A stretch of DNA of 55,050 nt, taken from NCBI GenBank assembly GCA_903859365.1, contig CAIOMD010000001.1, positions 1 through 55,050 on the forward strand, given 5' to 3'. Made by a program: the position numbers and the translations under genes. The notes beneath the pieces are model-generated. The model saw nothing but the letters and a program-made list of their open reading frames with translations. It had not been told where the DNA came from and did not search any database. Below, one piece after another: positions 11,637 through 22,731 of the stretch (positions are counted from its first letter, which is position 1; the number at the start of each line of letters is the position of its first letter). Origin of the DNA: an uncultured Candidatus Saccharibacteria bacterium. GTDB taxonomy: Bacteria > Patescibacteriota > Saccharimonadia > Saccharimonadales > CAIOMD01.

Positions 11637-13118
11637 TTATACAATTCCGCCTAGATGATGAATTTCACAGACATGAGAAGTGTTCATAAGCCACTCACAT
11701 CCATGGGTTTTTGCAAATGCTGTTGCTTTTGCAGGCCCCCATGTTCCTTTATCATATTCATAAAGATGTTTATTATCTTTTTCCCAAGCGCTTAAAATGG
11801 GCTGGAGAATTTTCCAGCAACGTATCACTTCATCACTGGTTGCGAATAAGCTTTGATCACCCGTTATGGCATCCACGAGAACTCGTTCATAGGCGTCCGG
11901 CTGAATATCCTTAAAGGAAGTTTCGTAACAGAAATCCATATCTACTGGTTCTAGTTCATTTTTAAGACCAGGTTTTTTTGCAAGTAGCCGTATACCGATT
12001 CCTTCATTTGGTTGAATACGAATAGTTAGCATATTCGGTGTGATTTTTCGTCTTGTTCTGTCTTTGAAAACAAGTGTGATTTCAGTGGTTTTTTCCTTCA
12101 AGGCCTTACCGGTTCTGAGTAAGATTGGCACACCTCCCCATCTAGAATTATTAACCGTAAGATGAACCGCGGCATAGGTCTCAATATTCGAATGAGCATT
12201 TTTTACTTCATCTCTATATCCTGCATATTGACCTCGAATGGCAATCTCATTAACATGTCTTTTTTTAATTGGTTTAACGGATTTAAGAAGTAAGAGCTTC
12301 TCCTTATGAAGATCTTTGGCTTTCATTGGTTGAGGAACATCCATCATGGTAAGAGCCATAAGTTGTAGTAAATGACTCTGTATGAGGTCACGCAGCGCTC
12401 CCATCCCTTCATAAAATACTGCACGCCCCTCTATATCAACTTCTTCAGCAGCAGTGATTTGAATATAGTCAACGAATTGACGATTCCAAATTCCTTCAAT
12501 TAAAGGATTACTGAAACGAAAGGTAAGTAAATTCTGTGCCGTTTCTTTGGCAAGGTAGTGGTCAATACGATACACCTGATTTTCTTTAAAATATTTTTTT
12601 ATAAAACCTACTAGATCTTTAGCACTTGCTAGATTAGTCCCAAATGGTTTTTCAACTAATATTCTTTGGGAAATATTTCCAGATTCCTTGTTCAGCCCAG
12701 CATTCGCAAGACAAGTAATAACACTCTTGAAAATCGATGGTGGGACTGCGAGATAATAAAGATGGTTTAGCTTTTCACCATTTTTTCTATCAATCTCCTG
12801 AAGTACGTTCTTTAATAAGAAGAAATCTTCGGGGTTTTCACTATCTAGTGTTAATACTCTCGATCTATTCTTAAAAAGATCAGTTACTTCTTGTATATTT
12901 TGCTGTCCTTTGCGCATTGGTTCATCATCAATTTTCTTTAGTATTGATTCTTTTGTTACGTCAGGATTTCTAGAAACGAAAATTATTTCAAACTTTTCAG
13001 GGACGAGATTGCCTTTGAGAAGATGATATATCGCTGGAAGTAATTTATTCTGAACAAGATTTCCGGTAGCACCAAAAATCACTAAGACAGTTCCGTTTGA
13101 ATTATTCGTTAATGCCAT
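11637..13118 (-). CDS. zwf: Glucose-6-phosphate 1-dehydrogenase
   Basis: IFGATGNL, EKPFG, RIDHYLAKE motifs. Confidence 0.96.
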   Translation of the reverse strand: MALTNNSNGTVLVIFGATGNLVQNKLLPAIYHLLKGNLVPEKFEIIFVSRNPDVTKESILKKIDDEPMRKGQQNIQEVTDLFKNRSRVLTLDSENPEDFFLLKNVLQEIDRKNGEKLNHLYYLAVPPSIFKSVITCLANAGLNKESGNISQRILVEKPFGTNLASAKDLVGFIKKYFKENQVYRIDHYLAKETAQNLLTFRFSNPLIEGIWNRQFVDYIQITAAEEVDIEGRAVFYEGMGALRDLIQSHLLQLMALTMMDVPQPMKAKDLHKEKLLLLKSVKPIKKRHVNEIAIRGQYAGYRDEVKNAHSNIETYAAVHLTVNNSRWGGVPILLRTGKALKEKTTEITLVFKDRTRRKITPNMLTIRIQPNEGIGIRLLAKKPGLKNELEPVDMDFCYETSFKDIQPDAYERVLVDAITGDQSLFATSDEVIRCWKILQPILSAWEKDNKHLYEYDKGTWGPAKATAFAKTHGCEWLMNTSHVCEIHHLGGIV

Positions 13119-13132
13119 CTTATAACCCTTCT

Positions 13133-14035
13133 TTAGGACTTATTAATACTATGCCCACCGAATTTGTTTCTTAATGCTGCTAAAATTTGTGTTGCGTAAG
13201 ACACTTCACCATTTTGGCTATCAAATCTTACTTTTAACGCATCTTCAAGCACTGGCATTTTAACGTTGCTCTTGCGTGCAGAATCAAGCGTCCATCGGCC
13301 TTCACCAGAATCAGCTACATAGCCGTCAACACCTTCAAGACTTGGATTTTCCTGATAAATCTCAACCATAAGTTTATTGAGTGTCGATTCTACGATGCTG
13401 CCATGCTGCCAGACTTCTGCTATCTTTTCCATATCGAGGCCTTCCATCGGGCCCTCTTTTAAGAGCTGATAGCCTTCTGCCATAGCTTGCATAACTCCGT
13501 ATTCTATTCCATTGTGAACCATCTTAACGAAATGACCACGACCTGATTCACCCATATAGGCATGCGCACCTTTGGGTGCAGCTAAAATATCAAAGGCTGG
13601 TATCATTCTTTCGTAATTTGCTCTGGATCCGCCAACCATTAAGCTAAAACCATTACTGAGTCCCATAACGCCGCCACTTGTCCCTACGTCCATCATATCT
13701 ATATTTTGAGCTGCAAGTTTCTCGGCATGGCTCATGGTTTCATTGAAATTAGTATTTCCGCCATCAATTAAAAGAGCGCCTTCAGGCAAGAGAGGTAGGA
13801 AGGCGTCAATTTCGTCTGAAGTGAAGTTTGAAGGAATCATAAGCCATATAACCGGATTCTCTCCAAGCATAGTTACCAATTCTTGTCTGCTTGTGGCAGC
13901 TTTAGCGCCACTTTGTACTGCTTTTTCAACGGCCGTCGAATCTACATCAAGTACAACCATTTCGTGACCAGCCTCAGAAAGTTTCTTTACGATCTGATAA
14001 CCCATTTTTCCGAGTCCAATAAATCCTATTTTCAT
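13133..14035 (-). CDS. gnd: 6-phosphogluconate dehydrogenase (decarboxylating, short type)
   Basis: GLGKMG, IDGGN, GTSGG, GHFVKMVHNGIEYG, LRNKFGGH. Confidence 0.95.
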   Translation of the reverse strand: MKIGFIGLGKMGYQIVKKLSEAGHEMVVLDVDSTAVEKAVQSGAKAATSRQELVTMLGENPVIWLMIPSNFTSDEIDAFLPLLPEGALLIDGGNTNFNETMSHAEKLAAQNIDMMDVGTSGGVMGLSNGFSLMVGGSRANYERMIPAFDILAAPKGAHAYMGESGRGHFVKMVHNGIEYGVMQAMAEGYQLLKEGPMEGLDMEKIAEVWQHGSIVESTLNKLMVEIYQENPSLEGVDGYVADSGEGRWTLDSARKSNVKMPVLEDALKVRFDSQNGEVSYATQILAALRNKFGGHSINKS

Positions 14036-14694
14036 TCTAGTTTCCCCTTGTTATAAAGTATCTCATATTGTTTTGCATTTTTGATAAGTTGCGATGGATA
14101 ATCTACTGGATCATGAACTTCGGAAACCGCCATAACAGCAGATTCTTTTTCATCACCTTCAATATATGCAAAAATCATATCAATTGAGCTAATGAAATGT
14201 GGGCTGATAGAAATTCTCTCAAACGTGTCTGAGGAATAATCAACCACAAGATTAGTAGAATCATTAAAGTTGATTCCTGGCAATATTCCTGCTGTATGAT
14301 TATCGGCACCAATACCCAAAACTGCGATTATATAATCTGAGATTTCTACAATACTTGCTAGCTTGCTTTCATAGTTCTTTGCCGTTTGATTGCGATTAAT
14401 CCCAGCATTCACTTCCAATATTTCTTCGAATTTAGATACATAATTTAGTAACCCGAGTGTCTTAAGCAAGTGAGCGTTTGAGTCTTCGGAATCGTAGGGA
14501 ACAAATCGTTCATCAACCATAGCGACTGACATATTTTTTCTCACTGAATCATCGAGCATGCTCAGGGCAGCTACCCCTATCGAAGCACTTGAACCGCCAC
14601 TCAAAAGATATAGAATTTTTTTTGAACTATTTTTTTTTATTTCTTCAGCAACTCTGCGCTCTGCTTCAGTTTTTGTTACGTTTTGCATTACCAT
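14032..14694 (-). CDS. pgl: 6-phosphogluconolactonase
   Basis: LSGGSS, DERFVP...SN, LGIGADNHTAG; first gene of pgl-gnd-zwf. Confidence 0.85.
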   Translation of the reverse strand: MVMQNVTKTEAERRVAEEIKKNSSKKILYLLSGGSSASIGVAALSMLDDSVRKNMSVAMVDERFVPYDSEDSNAHLLKTLGLLNYVSKFEEILEVNAGINRNQTAKNYESKLASIVEISDYIIAVLGIGADNHTAGILPGINFNDSTNLVVDYSSDTFERISISPHFISSIDMIFAYIEGDEKESAVMAVSEVHDPVDYPSQLIKNAKQYEILYNKGKLE

Positions 14695-14772
14695 TAGTAT
14701 AATCTATGAGCCTCATCTTTTACTAGAGTAGTGTTGTTTGAGAAGTCTGCTTTAGCTATAATTACAAACCAC

Positions 14773-14849
14773 GGGGCATTGGCGCAGTTGGCTAGCGCGC
14801 TTCCATGGCATGGAAGAGGTCAAGGGTTCGAATCCCTTATGCTCCACCA
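14773..14849 (+). tRNA. tRNA-Ala(GGC)
   Basis: Cloverleaf; anticodon arm cttcc-at-GGC-at-ggaag; G3:U70 pair; CCA end. Confidence 0.96.
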
Positions 14850-15202
14850 TTGTCATGTTTCAGATTTTCTGGGACAGACGAACCCTCGCACGATATCTAA
14901 CCGTCGAGGCTGGTTATCAATCGTTGCGCCAACCGTGAGGGTGCCTCAGGCTTGAGGTGTGCGCCCACCATGAAGAGGCACCTTGGCGGCCTCTGACCCT
15001 CGTGAGATTGTCCAGGCCTTGGTGTGGGCTTGGACAGCGTCGGATACGTGGAGCGCTGGCGTGCGGACCCGAGTCACCGTGAAGGGCAACTCCTGGATCT
15101 CGACCTTCTCCTTCGGCTCGTGAAGCAATGACTCGAAACGAGCGAAGGGGATGGACCGAGGTCCGATGCCTTCTGGTGATGGGTTAACGAACGTTGCGAG
15201 CG

Positions 15203-15715
15203 TCAGGCCGAAGTGGCCGCTGCGTTGTAGGCGTCGAGTTGTCCGGACGCTTCGATGTACTCCTCGACCCAGCGGGCCATGACCGCACTGGTCTTCTCGA
15301 CCTTCTCGAACTGACCGACAACTTGACCGACGGGGTTGAAGGCGACGTCCACGGTCTGGTCAGGCCACTTGTGGGTTGCCGAGACCGCCATGCCCGACAC
15401 CATGTACTGCAGCGGCATGCCGAGGGGCTCTGGATTGCCTTCGGCCGCCCAGGCTTCGTTCCAGTCGTTCTTGAGCATCCGGCAGGGCTTGCCCGTAAAG
15501 GAGCGGCTACGCACCGTGTCGCGGGACGTGGCCTTGATGTAGGCCGCTTGCTGGACGGGGGTGTTCTCGGCCTCTTCGACCATGAGCCACTGCGAACCCG
15601 ACCAGGCACCTTGGCACCCGAGGGCCAGAGCTGCAGCGATCTGCTGGCCGGAGCCAATTCCGCCGGCAGCGAGAACAGGACGAGGGGCCACGGCCTTGAC
15701 GACTTGGGGCCACTG
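15203..15715 (-). pseudogene. Nitronate monooxygenase (2-nitropropane dioxygenase-like), C-terminal half only
   Basis: WPQVVKAVAPRPVLAAGGIGSGQQIAAALALG..GAWSGSQWL...SRSFTGKP resembles mycobacterial Rv1894c-type NMO (recalled, not searched); upstream of about 15715 the frame is antisense to another gene and shows no NMO N-terminus. Confidence 0.8.
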
Positions 15716-15722
15716 CACTAGA

Positions 15723-16031
15723 ATGGAAGACATGTTGTGGATTGTGTTGCCCATCGCCATCGTGCTCATCGCCGTCGTTGGTTCAGTTCTGCTCACCCGA
15801 AGAAATGGGGGAACGGGCAACGACGTGATCGTCGAGTGCAGCGATGGCCATACGTACACGACCACCTGGATCCCGGCGGTCTCCTTCAAAGCCGTGCGCC
15901 TTGGTCCCACGCGAGCGCAGTACTGCCCCGTGGGGCGACACTGGACCAAGGTTCACCAGGTTGATCCCACCACCCTTGATGAAGAGGTGCTCGCAACGGC
16001 GCGCACCGTGCACGACCTCCGCATCCCTTAA
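15723..16031 (+). CDS. Small membrane-anchored protein with Cys/His (putative Zn-ribbon) motif
   Basis: MEDMLWIVLPIAIVLIAVVGSVLL TM helix, then C-x-x-G-H...WIP..S.K..RLG...CPVG.HW; high GC3 codon usage; resembles an actinobacterial hypothetical family. Confidence 0.7.
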   Translation: MEDMLWIVLPIAIVLIAVVGSVLLTRRNGGTGNDVIVECSDGHTYTTTWIPAVSFKAVRLGPTRAQYCPVGRHWTKVHQVDPTTLDEEVLATARTVHDLRIP

Positions 16032-16045
16032 GCCGGATTCGCTAC

Positions 16046-16501
16046 CTACGAAACTATTTTTTCGGCTACTGCTTCTTTGATTCCATATTTTGCCTGCTGA
16101 GCCAGACCGTTTGCAACAACCTGCGTATCTTCATAAACATCAAATTTATATGCTTTACCCCACCGGATGGAAATAAAATGGACGCCTGGATTTACATATT
16201 TTTGTCCATTAATAAGCTTGGTCGTCGCCACCCATCTGGCAATTACTAATGTATTCCAAGGAAAACCTTTTACTACAACATCGTTAACCTGGAATGTAAG
16301 CTTAGGTAGAACTCTGCCTAATCTTTCAAACCATTTTCTTAAGGCATCTTTATCATGACGAGTTCCACCTAATGCATGATCACCAGCAAAATGATGAATT
16401 ACGTTACTACTGATACCCCCAAGAACTTTATTATAATTATGATTTTGTACATCAATAAATGTATCTCTGACTTTCTTCGTAATAATCCTTTTATATATCA
16501 T
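16046..16501 (-). CDS. SnoaL-like/NTF2 family protein
   Basis: HHFAGDHALGGTRH...WFERL...GFPWNT...YEDTQ pattern; 151 aa. Confidence 0.8.
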   Translation of the reverse strand: MIYKRIITKKVRDTFIDVQNHNYNKVLGGISSNVIHHFAGDHALGGTRHDKDALRKWFERLGRVLPKLTFQVNDVVVKGFPWNTLVIARWVATTKLINGQKYVNPGVHFISIRWGKAYKFDVYEDTQVVANGLAQQAKYGIKEAVAEKIVS

Positions 16502-20411: not shown

Positions 20412-20496
20412 TGGTGGGCAAGGAGGGACTCGAACCCTCAAGCCTTGCGGCAACGGATTTTAAGTCCGTCGCGTATACCAATTCCGCCACTCACCC
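20412..20496 (-). tRNA. tRNA-Leu(TAA)
   Basis: Anticodon arm acgga-ct-TAA-aa-tccgt, long variable arm, CCA end. Confidence 0.95.
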
Positions 20497-20522: not shown

Positions 20523-20596
20523 TGGAGGCGCCTACCGGAATTGAACCGGTGTAAAAGGTTTTGCAGACCTCCACGTAACCACTCCGCCAAGGCGCC
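20523..20596 (-). tRNA. tRNA-Cys(GCA)
   Basis: Anticodon GCA, acceptor stem ggcgcct/aggcgcc, U73-CCA end. Confidence 0.95.
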
Positions 20597-20645: not shown

Positions 20646-22037
20646 CTAAAACTCTTCCAATTCAGCCTTAGTGCTGTATGGATCGTCAAAACGATAGTAG
20701 TCTCCATTTTTAGTTTTTAAATAGTTCCAACTAGCATTTTTTTCACCATGATTATCCCTAATCATACTTCCACGGGCGGTCGCACGTGTGCATGGAGGAG
20801 TATTATAAAGTTTTAAGATTTCAGAATAAGATATATAGGGAGATTCGATTTTATCCCAATACCGCATGGCAGGCCCTGAAGGAGAAATACGATCCCACGT
20901 TAAGGTTGCGGCGACAACATCTGCGTTAAAACTATTTATCTGATTTTCATCAAATCTTTTTCTCAAATAAAAATGACGTATGGCAAAATCCGCAAGTTCA
21001 AGTAGTCCTGCGTATTCACCCTTATCTAAGTCTGCTAATTTTAATTGATCGATTACGTGGCCCCATAGCGGCAAAGCTATTCGTTCGTCTTCTGGTAATT
21101 CAATATTCTCATTTAAAATATATGCCTGTTCTAGTAAAATTTCCTGATAATTAACAGCAGATATTACATTTCCGTCTAGGGTCTCCATGGTTTTCGTAAA
21201 CCCTAAATCTTTAGAAAATGATTCCGCTGCATAGCCTGGACTTTCAAATGATTTTCCTATTAATACATCATTATTAAGCTTATCTTTGTGTTCCACGATT
21301 CTAAGCATGAGCGAAGTTGTGGCAAGATCCAAAAAATTAATTGTTTTAGAAAAATTTGCATCCGCAAAACGCACTTCAAGCCTCGCGTAATCCCCTCCTG
21401 GAGTTACAGTGTCCTGGTCAGCCCTCTCCGGAGGTACAATTGCCATTGGCTTAGACCCGTGCGTTATGCGTTGTGAAAGTTCACCCGTAATAGTTTGAAA
21501 ACCAATGCCTGAAATCTTTTGAGATAACTCAAAACGATCATTAACTATTCCAGCACCGGACCATACTCTTGAAGCCCAGAGTGAAGGAAGAATTGTCATA
21601 AAGTCTATATCAGCAGTAATCGATCGAGGTATTAAATAATTTTCATGGTACCCCGTCGTATCCGAAACACCTTTAATAACAGAACCTGTATTTCTGAATA
21701 AACCTTCATGTTCAAGATTAGAGGCTGAGATTATATCTACGATTTGCAATATTCCAGCGTAATCAGCCGCTGCAGCCTGTCTAGGGCCAAGACATTCTGC
21801 GGTTGCGATCTCTAAGTTTTGCATGTCAAGGTAGGCTCTACCGCCAGAATCTAAATAACCATATCCTGCACAACTGAATCCTGCGTCGCGAATTACTTGA
21901 TCATTCAAAAATCGATTTTCATCGTTGAATAATTCGCTATCAGGGTTTATTTGAATTGTTATTTCAGATTCAACTCCAATAATACGATCGGGTGGTGTTT
22001 CGGAAAAAAAATCCTTAACAGTAATGTCTTTTTCCAT
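20646..22037 (-). CDS. Pup-protein ligase/deamidase (PafA/Dop) family protein
   Basis: RIIGVESE (GhExE), GGRAYLD, EIATAEC, GYHENYL, GAG, LSQK, RLEVRFADAN, C-terminal PP.TRA.ARG...W...DPY, all collinear with PafA/Dop motifs. Confidence 0.85.
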   Translation of the reverse strand: MEKDITVKDFFSETPPDRIIGVESEITIQINPDSELFNDENRFLNDQVIRDAGFSCAGYGYLDSGGRAYLDMQNLEIATAECLGPRQAAAADYAGILQIVDIISASNLEHEGLFRNTGSVIKGVSDTTGYHENYLIPRSITADIDFMTILPSLWASRVWSGAGIVNDRFELSQKISGIGFQTITGELSQRITHGSKPMAIVPPERADQDTVTPGGDYARLEVRFADANFSKTINFLDLATTSLMLRIVEHKDKLNNDVLIGKSFESPGYAAESFSKDLGFTKTMETLDGNVISAVNYQEILLEQAYILNENIELPEDERIALPLWGHVIDQLKLADLDKGEYAGLLELADFAIRHFYLRKRFDENQINSFNADVVAATLTWDRISPSGPAMRYWDKIESPYISYSEILKLYNTPPCTRATARGSMIRDNHGEKNASWNYLKTKNGDYYRFDDPYSTKAELEEF

Positions 22038-22051
22038 ATTCAGATGCTTTC

Positions 22052-22483
22052 CTATAGAGACGCTTGTGGCTCTACGGCTACGCTGAATGTGTTTACAGTT
22101 TTTCGATAGCTAGTCTGAGAAAAAATTTTGCGCTGAGATAACGATTTTTGAAAATATGACATGATTAGCAGCGCTGGCTTCACTGGTTCAATTCCTTCAA
22201 AATTTGCGTCTATAGCTTTGAGTAAAGCGGCTCGAGCAGTTGTATCTCCATCCATTTCAGTACTTACCAGTCCTCCGATTGCAGTTGAAGTGACTATGTT
22301 GGGAATAATATCTGTATATTTATGTAGTGCTTCTTCCAACAAAAAGAAACCTTCCGAAGGATTAGCGAGGGAAAGTTTTTCAAAGGTATTGCCATATTCT
22401 TGAATAGTAGATTCATTGATTGTTTTGAAATCATCTTTTTCGAAAGTCACTATATGTATCAGAGAGTTAAGATTATTGTGCAT
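22052..22483 (-). CDS. Hypothetical protein upstream of the pafA-like gene
   Basis: 143 aa ORF, same strand, 14 nt gap to the pafA-like gene. Confidence 0.6.
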   Translation of the reverse strand: MHNNLNSLIHIVTFEKDDFKTINESTIQEYGNTFEKLSLANPSEGFFLLEEALHKYTDIIPNIVTSTAIGGLVSTEMDGDTTARAALLKAIDANFEGIEPVKPALLIMSYFQKSLSQRKIFSQTSYRKTVNTFSVAVEPQASL

Positions 22484-22622
22484 AAAAAATACAATACCAC
22501 AATTTATTAAAAAAGATAATAAATGGTGGAGTATGGTTTATTGAAGTCTGTCTATATTATCGCCGTAGTAACAAGTACCATAACCATAAAAGGCCGATAG
22601 TTAAGTCCAAAATCAGGCCAAG

Positions 22623-22653
22623 AAAAAAGCCACCGCTTAGGGTGGCGCTTTTC
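22623..22653 (-). terminator. Terminator downstream of tRNA-Gly
   Basis: gccacc/ggtggc stem followed by a T6 tract on the minus strand. Confidence 0.65.
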
Positions 22654-22654
22654 A

Positions 22655-22731
22655 TGGTGCGGGTTAAGAGACTCTAACTCTCGACCTCTTCCTTGGCAAG
22701 GAAGCGCTCTAAACAACTGAGCTAAACCCGC
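22655..22731 (-). tRNA. tRNA-Gly(GCC), T-loop variant
   Basis: Anticodon arm cttcc-tt-GCC-aa-ggaag; CCA end; T-loop reads TTAGAGT instead of TTCGAGT. Confidence 0.9.

Follow-up and report, generated by a model that had tools for sequence, protein, structure and literature searches.

What might a lone relative of the Pup ligase PafA and the depupylase Dop do in a genome that carries no recognisable Pup? The question is raised by an open reading frame (ORF) in a 55,050-nucleotide stretch of DNA, here called the window (contig CAIOMD010000001.1, positions 1 to 55,050 of the forward strand, assembly GCA_903859365.1), from an uncultured Candidatus Saccharibacteria bacterium of the order Saccharimonadales. 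The ORF lies at 20646..22037 on the minus strand, as do all features of the locus placed below, starts with ATG and encodes a protein of 463 amino acids (aa); its reality as a gene was confirmed. We propose, at a probability of roughly 0.4, that the product is a Pup-activating ligase which, given its predicted export and predicted use of Pup, would act on the Pup of an actinobacterial host.

An earlier note on this DNA had recognised the PafA/Dop core motifs in their usual order, and all of them were located in the ORF: GVESE (residues 21-25), YLD (69-71), EIATAEC (76-82), GYHENY (129-134), PERADQD (203-209), RLEV (219-222), PPCTRATARG (414-423), W437 and DPY. The protein matched the PafA/Dop family PF03136 at E 1.5e-35 (123.5 bits; cut-off 25) and reached neither equivalog cut-off, scoring 86.2 bits with the PafA model TIGR03686 (cut-off 551.3) and 76.6 bits with the Dop model TIGR03688 (cut-off 492.3). 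By sequence, the closest solved structures were chains of Dop and PafA (E 4e-13 to 2e-8). The AlphaFold2 model, which drew on a 145-sequence alignment, had a mean predicted local distance difference test score (pLDDT) of 96.7. Its residues 16-463 aligned to Dop with Z 37.8-41.0 and a root-mean-square deviation of 2.1-2.6; the model gave Z 33.8-36.9 against PafA, 20.1 against YbdK and 13-14 against glutamine synthetases, and contained both the glutamine synthetase-fold cradle and the PafA/Dop C-terminal region. The gene is intact and encodes neither PafA nor Dop; it is a variant of the known PafA/Dop family of enzymes, a carboxylate-amine ligase by assignment.

The genome (716 kb in 13 contigs, 99.92% complete, 0% contaminated) offers no sign that the gene is foreign to it. 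The note's impression of a native gene of ordinary low G+C content (GC) held: GC is 0.387 and GC at third codon positions (GC3) 0.281, within the genome range of 0.397 ± 0.029 and 0.315 ± 0.04 (375 long ORFs), and by composition the gene is native-looking. Contamination or mis-assembly was ruled out, as independent metagenome contigs of the same species (L105 and L108, 98%) and of a sister species (L110 and L111, 77% DNA identity) match the window colinearly for 6.0-6.5 kb, from the enzyme gene through tRNA-Cys, tRNA-Leu and ligA; the enzyme gene is therefore part of this chromosome. Of the 20 listed runs that contain the window stretch, 16 are not flagged as its possible source, and all 16 are freshwater metagenomes, from 14 studies; no RNA run was among the runs listed. 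A phage-borne or known defence gene was also rejected: relatives in viral contigs numbered 0 (215 pattern matches), and PADLOC, searched for known defence systems, matched 0 of the 4 locus proteins. A pattern search of genome contigs with the single enzyme protein likewise gave 110 pattern matches and 0 relatives.

To find partners for the enzyme, we searched all 13 contigs, using 33,542 six-frame segments in the tag searches. The whole genome holds one PF03136 gene and no match to the 20S subunit (PF00227), Pup (PF05639) or the ARC OB domain (PF16450). The UBact model NF033388 found nothing at E 1, and no control genome came over the UBact cut-off either. The ARC model TIGR03689 reached only 140.6 bits (cut-off 504.75), on the AAA core of a 624-aa frame of a kind seen in nearly all relatives. 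Profiles of saccharibacterial Pups run against the segments gave a best E of 0.06 in one search and nothing at E 1 in another. Among the 27 segments ending in G-E or G-Q none was Pup-like, and one was both acidic and ATG-started. The acidic 115-aa protein that ends in G-E (G000:C12:26591-26935) was tried as a hidden tag and rejected: its homologues end in FGE in 5 of 7 cases, otherwise in FNE and FND, it has no NCBIfam match, and it also occurs in a congener (G300) with no enzyme match. The same protein (L145:3089-3436; G000:C12:26588-26935) lies upstream of pyruvate kinase and has six homologues at 48-94% identity. The congener has no Pup match. A full Pup-proteasome set (pup, dop, pafA, arc/mpa, prcAB) is not present in the genome; the absence of pup/UBact, arc and prcAB that the note had reported for the window thus extends to the whole assembly.

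The relatives of the enzyme present a different picture. Among 50%-identity representatives, 127 proteins matched at E 1e-30 or better. A quick tree of 81 rows placed the enzyme in a 20-row clade (Shimodaira-Hasegawa-like approximate likelihood-ratio test, SH-aLRT, 100), separate from PafA and Dop; deep placement is unsure because the remaining Saccharimonadales homologues are spread over many more long branches in that tree. A careful tree of 32 rows, with the other Saccharimonadales rows left out, put the clade on a long stem outside Dop (95/90), attached at an open node that lies between the PafA of actinobacteria and that of Nitrospira. We take the clade to be a probable third branch within the PafA/Dop family. 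Titled GTDB records included 11 relatives that are neither PafA nor Dop, seven named Saccharibacteria, Saccharimonadales or Saccharimonadaceae and four only 'bacterium'; P0039 is named Saccharimonadales. The clade's named records are all Saccharibacteria.

Next to the clade's enzyme genes there is usually a pup. Counting as assessable those loci with at least 1 kb downstream, and duplicate loci of one genome once, we had 12 clade loci outside this species pair (L064, L103, L107, L109 and L113-L115 ended too early and were left out, and P0003 and P0004, relatives at 64-65% identity, entered the analysis as proteins alone). A convergent pup lies tail-to-tail with the enzyme gene, at most 17 bases from its end, in 11 of the 12 (L028, L038, L058, L059, L060, L061, L062, L065, L066, L081 and L112; L063 is without pup), and the nearest relatives outside the species pair (46-47% identity) are among them. 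Three of the four neighbouring Pups tested reach or nearly reach the TIGR03687 cut-off of 41.45 bits (50.9, 53.1 and 41.4); the Pup of L062 was caught by its GGQ tail alone, and the pup-linked enzyme copy of L081 has an internal deletion and no strand-6 region. In this species and its sister, all six assessable contigs, the window included, have a tRNA-Cys in the pup slot (20523..20596, 49 bases downstream of the enzyme gene; the same arrangement in L105, L106, L108, L110 and L111). This supports Pup as the probable partner of the clade, with the two-gene pup and enzyme module as its normal state and a loss of pup in this lineage. The enzyme, which the note had described as stand-alone, is so in this genome, but the clade to which it belongs normally is not. 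A second type of module was observed in genus g19 (L017:1241-2799 and L019:1136-2748), where a divergent pup immediately precedes, in the same orientation, an RLH-type enzyme of a different branch.

Loss of the partner has not been followed by loss of the enzyme. It is intact in seven full-length or near-full-length contigs from two species. Compared with the sister species, it has 81-82% identity, a proportion of synonymous differences (pS) of 0.78-0.80, which is saturated, and 0.12-0.13 nonsynonymous substitutions per site (dN); LigA on the same contigs has 82% identity and dN 0.115-0.117. The enzyme gene is not decaying and is as conserved as DNA ligase.

To judge what the protein could catalyse, we counted residues in an alignment of 145 relatives, with 27 PafA/Dop rows for comparison. 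The acidic residues of strands 2-3, the GhExE motif, the catalytic Asp and the HxN motif (H131, N133) are all present. The Mg/ATP-binding GhExE motif, as defined by Iyer et al. (2008; PMC2588565), spans G21-E25 (21963..21977; ATP, adenosine triphosphate), with E23 and E25 each kept in 144/145. D71 (21825..21827) aligns to the YVD/YLD of PafA and Dop as the counterpart of their catalytic Asp (D in 133/145, E in 8/145). E76 is kept in 145/145, E81 in 143/145 and H131 in 144/145; in the PafA/Dop-type C-terminal region, the TRAxxR...W motif (R418-W437; 20727..20786) has R418 in 143/145 and R422 and W437 in 145/145.

Elsewhere the site has been altered. E221 of strand 6 is found in 143/145 relatives and R223 in 142/145, whereas H and I fill these positions in each of the 27 PafA/Dop rows; the strict ExRxxD motif (E221-x-R223-x-x-D226; 21360..21377) occurs in 125/145 and [HQ]x4D in 1/145. 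Elsewhere in the superfamily, the place of PafA's [QH]x4D is taken by Ex[RK]x2D (PMC2588565), so the clade carries a motif of the synthetase type. There is no Dop-loop: 39 residues separate E25 from G65, as in most PafA rows, against 69-99 in 14 of 15 Dop rows. The alpha-loop/acceptor-binding region (S172-D216; 21390..21524) is remodelled, reading SQK...RIT..KPM; it does not match the PafA alpha-loop sequence and lacks the NTRDE arginine (R207/R193 of PafA, R227 of Dop) throughout the clade. By alignment, these three changes (no Dop-loop, the ExRxxD strand 6 and the lost NTRDE arginine) define the clade. The earlier note had read PERADQD and RLEV as altered RDEPH and RLHV motifs. Both strings are there, but the arginine of PERADQD is not a retained RDEPH arginine, because an 82%-identical relative (P0002) has G in its place and R[DE] occurs in that loop in only 15/145 relatives.

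These changes bear on the direction of the reaction. Dop holds its catalytic phosphate with R227 and H241 (PMC8599861). It cannot do without R227, whereas the corresponding R207 of PafA serves target recognition, and R207A still makes phospho-Pup (PMC10465538). The alignment gave no counterpart of Dop R227 or H241 in our enzyme, which makes Dop-type depupylation less likely than ligation. Residues 78-80 read A-T-A, listed as PafA-type in Table 1 of Hecht et al. (PMC7947786). Our inference is an active, ATP-dependent enzyme whose phosphate binding may have passed to R223, and a ligase with a new target range appears more likely than a classic depupylase.

Where the enzyme would find Pup is suggested by its distribution, for which our figures are treated as counts rather than tests because kin are not independent. 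PF03136 matches were found in 46 of the order's 300 other genomes; beyond the order, 2 of 377 genomes of the phylum had one (the order count being taken from the kinship column). The 47 enzyme-bearing genomes include none with a 20S proteasome, 11 with a Pup over the cut-off and one with a true ARC; a twelfth Pup, divergent and beside the enzyme in G007, was missed by the genome-wide profile searches. Pup occurs in 16 of 301 order genomes, of which five, one of them a single contig, have no enzyme match; this 'no enzyme' rests on the order-wide PF03136 search, as a later search (0/5) had no positive control. The ExRxxD clade is present in 4/301 order genomes and 2/23 family genomes, and any enzyme match in 3/23 family genomes. 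The enzyme alone, the tag alone and the pair each persist without a proteasome in this order. Cultured Saccharibacteria grow on actinobacteria (PMC9166423). The main argument for a role in the host, an indirect one, is this piecemeal occurrence without a proteasome in a lineage whose cultured members live on actinobacteria: components too few for a pathway of their own would each meet their partners inside an actinobacterial cell. The broader proposal, that Saccharimonadales have turned actinobacterial Pup parts (decoys, pup and enzyme pairs and, in this genome, a Pup-less ligase with a rebuilt acceptor site) into injected tools that redirect the host's Pup-proteasome system, we rate at a little short of an even chance.

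Three further genomes of the order illustrate the range of arrangements. One single-contig genome (G272; L039, G272:C1:80573-82129; L027, L038) has a true ARC/Mpa (TIGR03689, 799.5 bits), Pup, two PF03136 genes and no 20S, with the ARC far from the pup and enzyme pair. Another, single-contig and 98% complete, encodes a canonical Pup ending in GGE (L049, G078:C1:516199-516405; TIGR03687, 61.5 bits) and has no PafA/Dop-family match; this Pup is possibly a decoy. A homologue in G096 (L024) is broken, being both frameshifted and stopped.

Under the proposed host-directed reading, the enzyme would spend ATP on activating Pup at its C-terminal Glu/Gln and would then likely join it to protein lysines. 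The phosphate/metal contacts that R227/H241 make in Dop would fall to R223 and E221, as in glutamine/glutamylcysteine synthetases, the reaction presumably running in the ligase (or Pup-transfer) direction, and loss of the R207-type arginine would give a different, probably narrower target range than that of host PafA. Host Pup is the likely donor because the genome has lost the pup that adjoins the enzyme in relatives. The enzyme may reach the host cytoplasm through a type IV secretion system (T4SS), its predicted route of export; host Pup, Dop, ARC and proteasome would do the rest, so that chosen host proteins are destroyed or Pup is tied up. A VirB4-like ATPase (PF19044, 61.6 bits, over the cut-off) is encoded on contig C11, with two weak TrbC/VirB2 (pilin) matches below cut-off nearby. 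T4SS genes are reported to be essential for epibiotic growth in Saccharimonadia (PMC12102498), and two papers that touch on the cargo of the saccharibacterial T4SS treat it as speculation (PMC12592800, PMC10187176). Action on host Pup had been suggested in the earlier note and is partly supported; the pup-less genome, and the pairing that supports Pup as the clade's substrate, speak for it here, while for the relatives an internal role is possible too.

Several results weigh against this reading. The enzyme has no Sec/Tat-type N-terminus and no hydrophobic or membrane segment, its gene is far from the T4SS locus, and one freshwater family of Saccharimonadia is described as not always attached to other cells (PMC9166423). 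Conservation at the level of LigA is what a housekeeping enzyme would show, and the own Pup of most relatives fits an internal module equally well. A-T-A is not clade-wide, P standing at position 80 in 93/145, and in the four-protein subclade of our enzyme Asn replaces the conserved His that follows the catalytic Asp (H74N). By Z the model is somewhat nearer Dop than PafA, and the alpha region (about residues 185-195) is modelled as a loop, not a helix. Although the 32-row tree puts the clade outside Dop, approximately unbiased (AU) tests reject neither actinobacterial PafA (p-AU 0.447) nor, narrowly, actinobacterial Dop (p-AU 0.064) as its sister, and either may have been the donor. Finally, Gln is the last residue of 10 of the 11 neighbouring Pups, and a lone clade enzyme would then have to deamidate as well or borrow a Dop. 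PafA cannot use Gln-ended Pup with ATP, and a hybrid enzyme made by Hecht et al. used Pup-Q with ATP (PMC7947786).

Conservation without pup might also mean that the acyl donor was switched after the loss and that the protein is now an own-cell gamma-glutamyl ligase, acting on a small molecule, a peptide or the C-terminal Glu of another protein; we consider this unlikely, though not far-fetched. The superfamily-type ExRxxD and the rebuilt alpha-loop could be taken as its signature, and the LigA-like constraint, the missing export signal and H74N would fit it too. The same motif and loop are, however, shared by clade members that keep pup, and so do not mark a donor switch. The fold, C-terminal region included, is far nearer Dop/PafA (Z 34-41) than YbdK/GCS (Z 20), no partner synthetase adjoins the gene, and the genome's one acidic G-E-ending protein has an unconserved end.

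Should the enzyme act on host Pup in the reverse or a mixed direction, it would strip, deamidate or move Pup as a counter-defence, shielding parasite or host proteins from the host proteasome. The top structural matches are indeed Dop (Z up to 41.0 vs 36.9), and the alpha region is modelled as a loop, as it is in Dop (PMC7947786). T192 aligns with Dop T217, which binds the last residue of Pup (PMC8599861), and a Thr stands 2-5 residues before K196 in 113/145 relatives. The Gln-ended neighbouring Pups would suit deamidation, and the Dop-loop that the enzyme lacks is dispensable for Dop activity (PMC7947786). The missing R227 and H241 counterparts, the missing Dop-loop and the position outside Dop in the free tree (95/90) make this improbable, and export is only hypothesised, as it is for the host-directed ligase.

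An internal, proteasome-free pup and enzyme tagging module, regulatory or anti-phage, with the genome's own pup unassembled or too divergent to find, is about as improbable. The module is present in 11 of 12 relatives, 13 contigs leave gaps, and the divergent Pup of G007 was missed by profiles. Proteasome-free Pup systems are described in Corynebacterium (PMC3511204) and in Plesiocystis and Rhodopirellula (PMC2588565). Against this, the clade's pup sits at most 17 bases from the enzyme end, the very place that tRNA-Cys occupies in the window as well as on five more contigs from two species; the tail regular expression that catches divergent Pups finds none, and the congener has no Pup match. 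For an anti-phage role, the PADLOC and viral-contig results given above are negative. A decaying relic of a pup module with no activity left would account for the lost partner, the patchy distribution (3/23 family genomes, the congener without) and the broken homologues of G096 and L081, but is very hard to square with an enzyme intact in seven contigs of two species, with LigA-like dN at saturated synonymous divergence (dS), kept catalytic residues and a pLDDT of 96.7.

The gene 14 bases upstream of the enzyme (22052..22483) encodes 143 aa of no known family, without Pfam or PADLOC match, and is possibly co-transcribed with it. It has 45% identity in the sister species (dN/dS about 0.2). As a dedicated partner of the enzyme it was rejected, being found in 2/301 order genomes and having a paralogue elsewhere in the genome and in the congener that has no enzyme match; it is probably not one. 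A feature comparison gave DUF7207 as a lead (0.94, only 133/256 features shared). The paralogue (L152, G000:C7:10363-10707) belongs to a family restricted to this genus among the 301 genomes and adjoins a gene that we take, from resemblance, to be polysaccharide-deacetylase-like. A promoter scan of the locus was uninformative (9 sites against 7.1 ± 2.5 expected).

On the far side of tRNA-Cys lies a tRNA-Leu (20412..20496). Upstream of the 143-aa gene there is a tRNA-Gly (22655..22731), then a terminator-like hairpin (22629-22646), and gene content from there up to the 143-aa gene differs among close relatives. At this variable site (22588-22655), same-species contigs (L105, L106, L108) hold other genes that are missing from this assembly, secreted-looking proteins included, one gene presumably being TatC-like; L109 has two further genes there. 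Elsewhere in the window, a GC-rich insert follows a tRNA-Ala (14850-16050; bin 14001-16000 has GC 0.52 against 0.39), contains a nitronate-monooxygenase-like ORF (15203-15949) and is missing from L105, L108, L110 and L111. There are also a nickel superoxide dismutase (PF09055) with an S26/S24-type peptidase alongside (1555-2242) and an oxidative pentose-phosphate cluster of G6PD, 6PGD and 6-phosphogluconolactonase-like genes (11637-14694).

No literature joining Saccharibacteria and pupylation was found, in a search that left subscription papers and supplements outside, where gene-family tables may include the family. A Candidate Phyla Radiation (CPR) term joined with a Pup term gave none among the matches listed, and a term search for 'pup' or 'proteasome' found neither in PMC12592800, PMC10187176, PMC13622651 and PMC9166423. 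Hecht et al. (PMC7947786) mention sporadic homologues in other phyla, in passages that do not name CPR. As Pup is a host-specific pathway, the enzyme is a concrete and assayable candidate for T4SS cargo: one protein, standard pupylation assays and tractable parasite-host pairs. If the injected-tools proposal is true, it would give the saccharibacterial T4SS its first defined cargo and would parallel, between bacteria, the ubiquitin-hijacking effectors used by pathogens of eukaryotes. Even without export, a third PafA/Dop branch with a glutamine synthetase-type motif, usually a single enzyme with a Gln-ended Pup, bears on the origins of the ligase and hydrolase directions, and may yield, for proximity labelling, a Pup ligase whose specificity differs.

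Among known systems, PafA (TIGR03686; PDB 4B0T, 4BJR) shares with our enzyme the fold, GhExE, the catalytic Asp, HxN, TRAxxR/W, the absence of a Dop-loop and A-T-A at 78-80, and the clade relatives adjoin pup. The enzyme differs in having 22% identity, E-x-R-x2-D in place of H-x4-D, no R207 counterpart, a rebuilt alpha region and no dop, pup, arc or prcAB in its genome. Dop (TIGR03688; PDB 4B0R, 5LRT, 7OXY, 9CKU) is the best structural match and has in common the alpha loop and the Thr matching T217; unlike Dop, the enzyme has no Dop-loop and no R227/H241 counterparts, and in the free tree it branches outside the Dop sequences. Gram-negative and candidate phyla possess UBact conjugation systems, whose PafA/Dop homologues likewise lie outside Actinobacteria. 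Our genome differs in having neither UBact (NF033388, 0 at E 1) nor a proteasome, and the relatives' tags score as Pup (TIGR03687). GCS2/YbdK and glutamine synthetase have the strand-6 Ex[RK]x2D and the core fold in common with the enzyme, but at Z 20 and 13-14, with the C-terminal region uncovered and no sequence-level match. Plesiocystis and Rhodopirellula pair a single ligase with pup and no 20S, much like the usual module of the clade; their ligases have four transmembrane segments where the enzyme has none, and our genome is even without pup (PMC2588565). Corynebacterium pupylates without a 20S, but keeps Dop and ARC (PMC3511204). To these systems the locus adds a clean test case: its clade otherwise travels with pup, yet this member lacks pup and is strongly conserved all the same.

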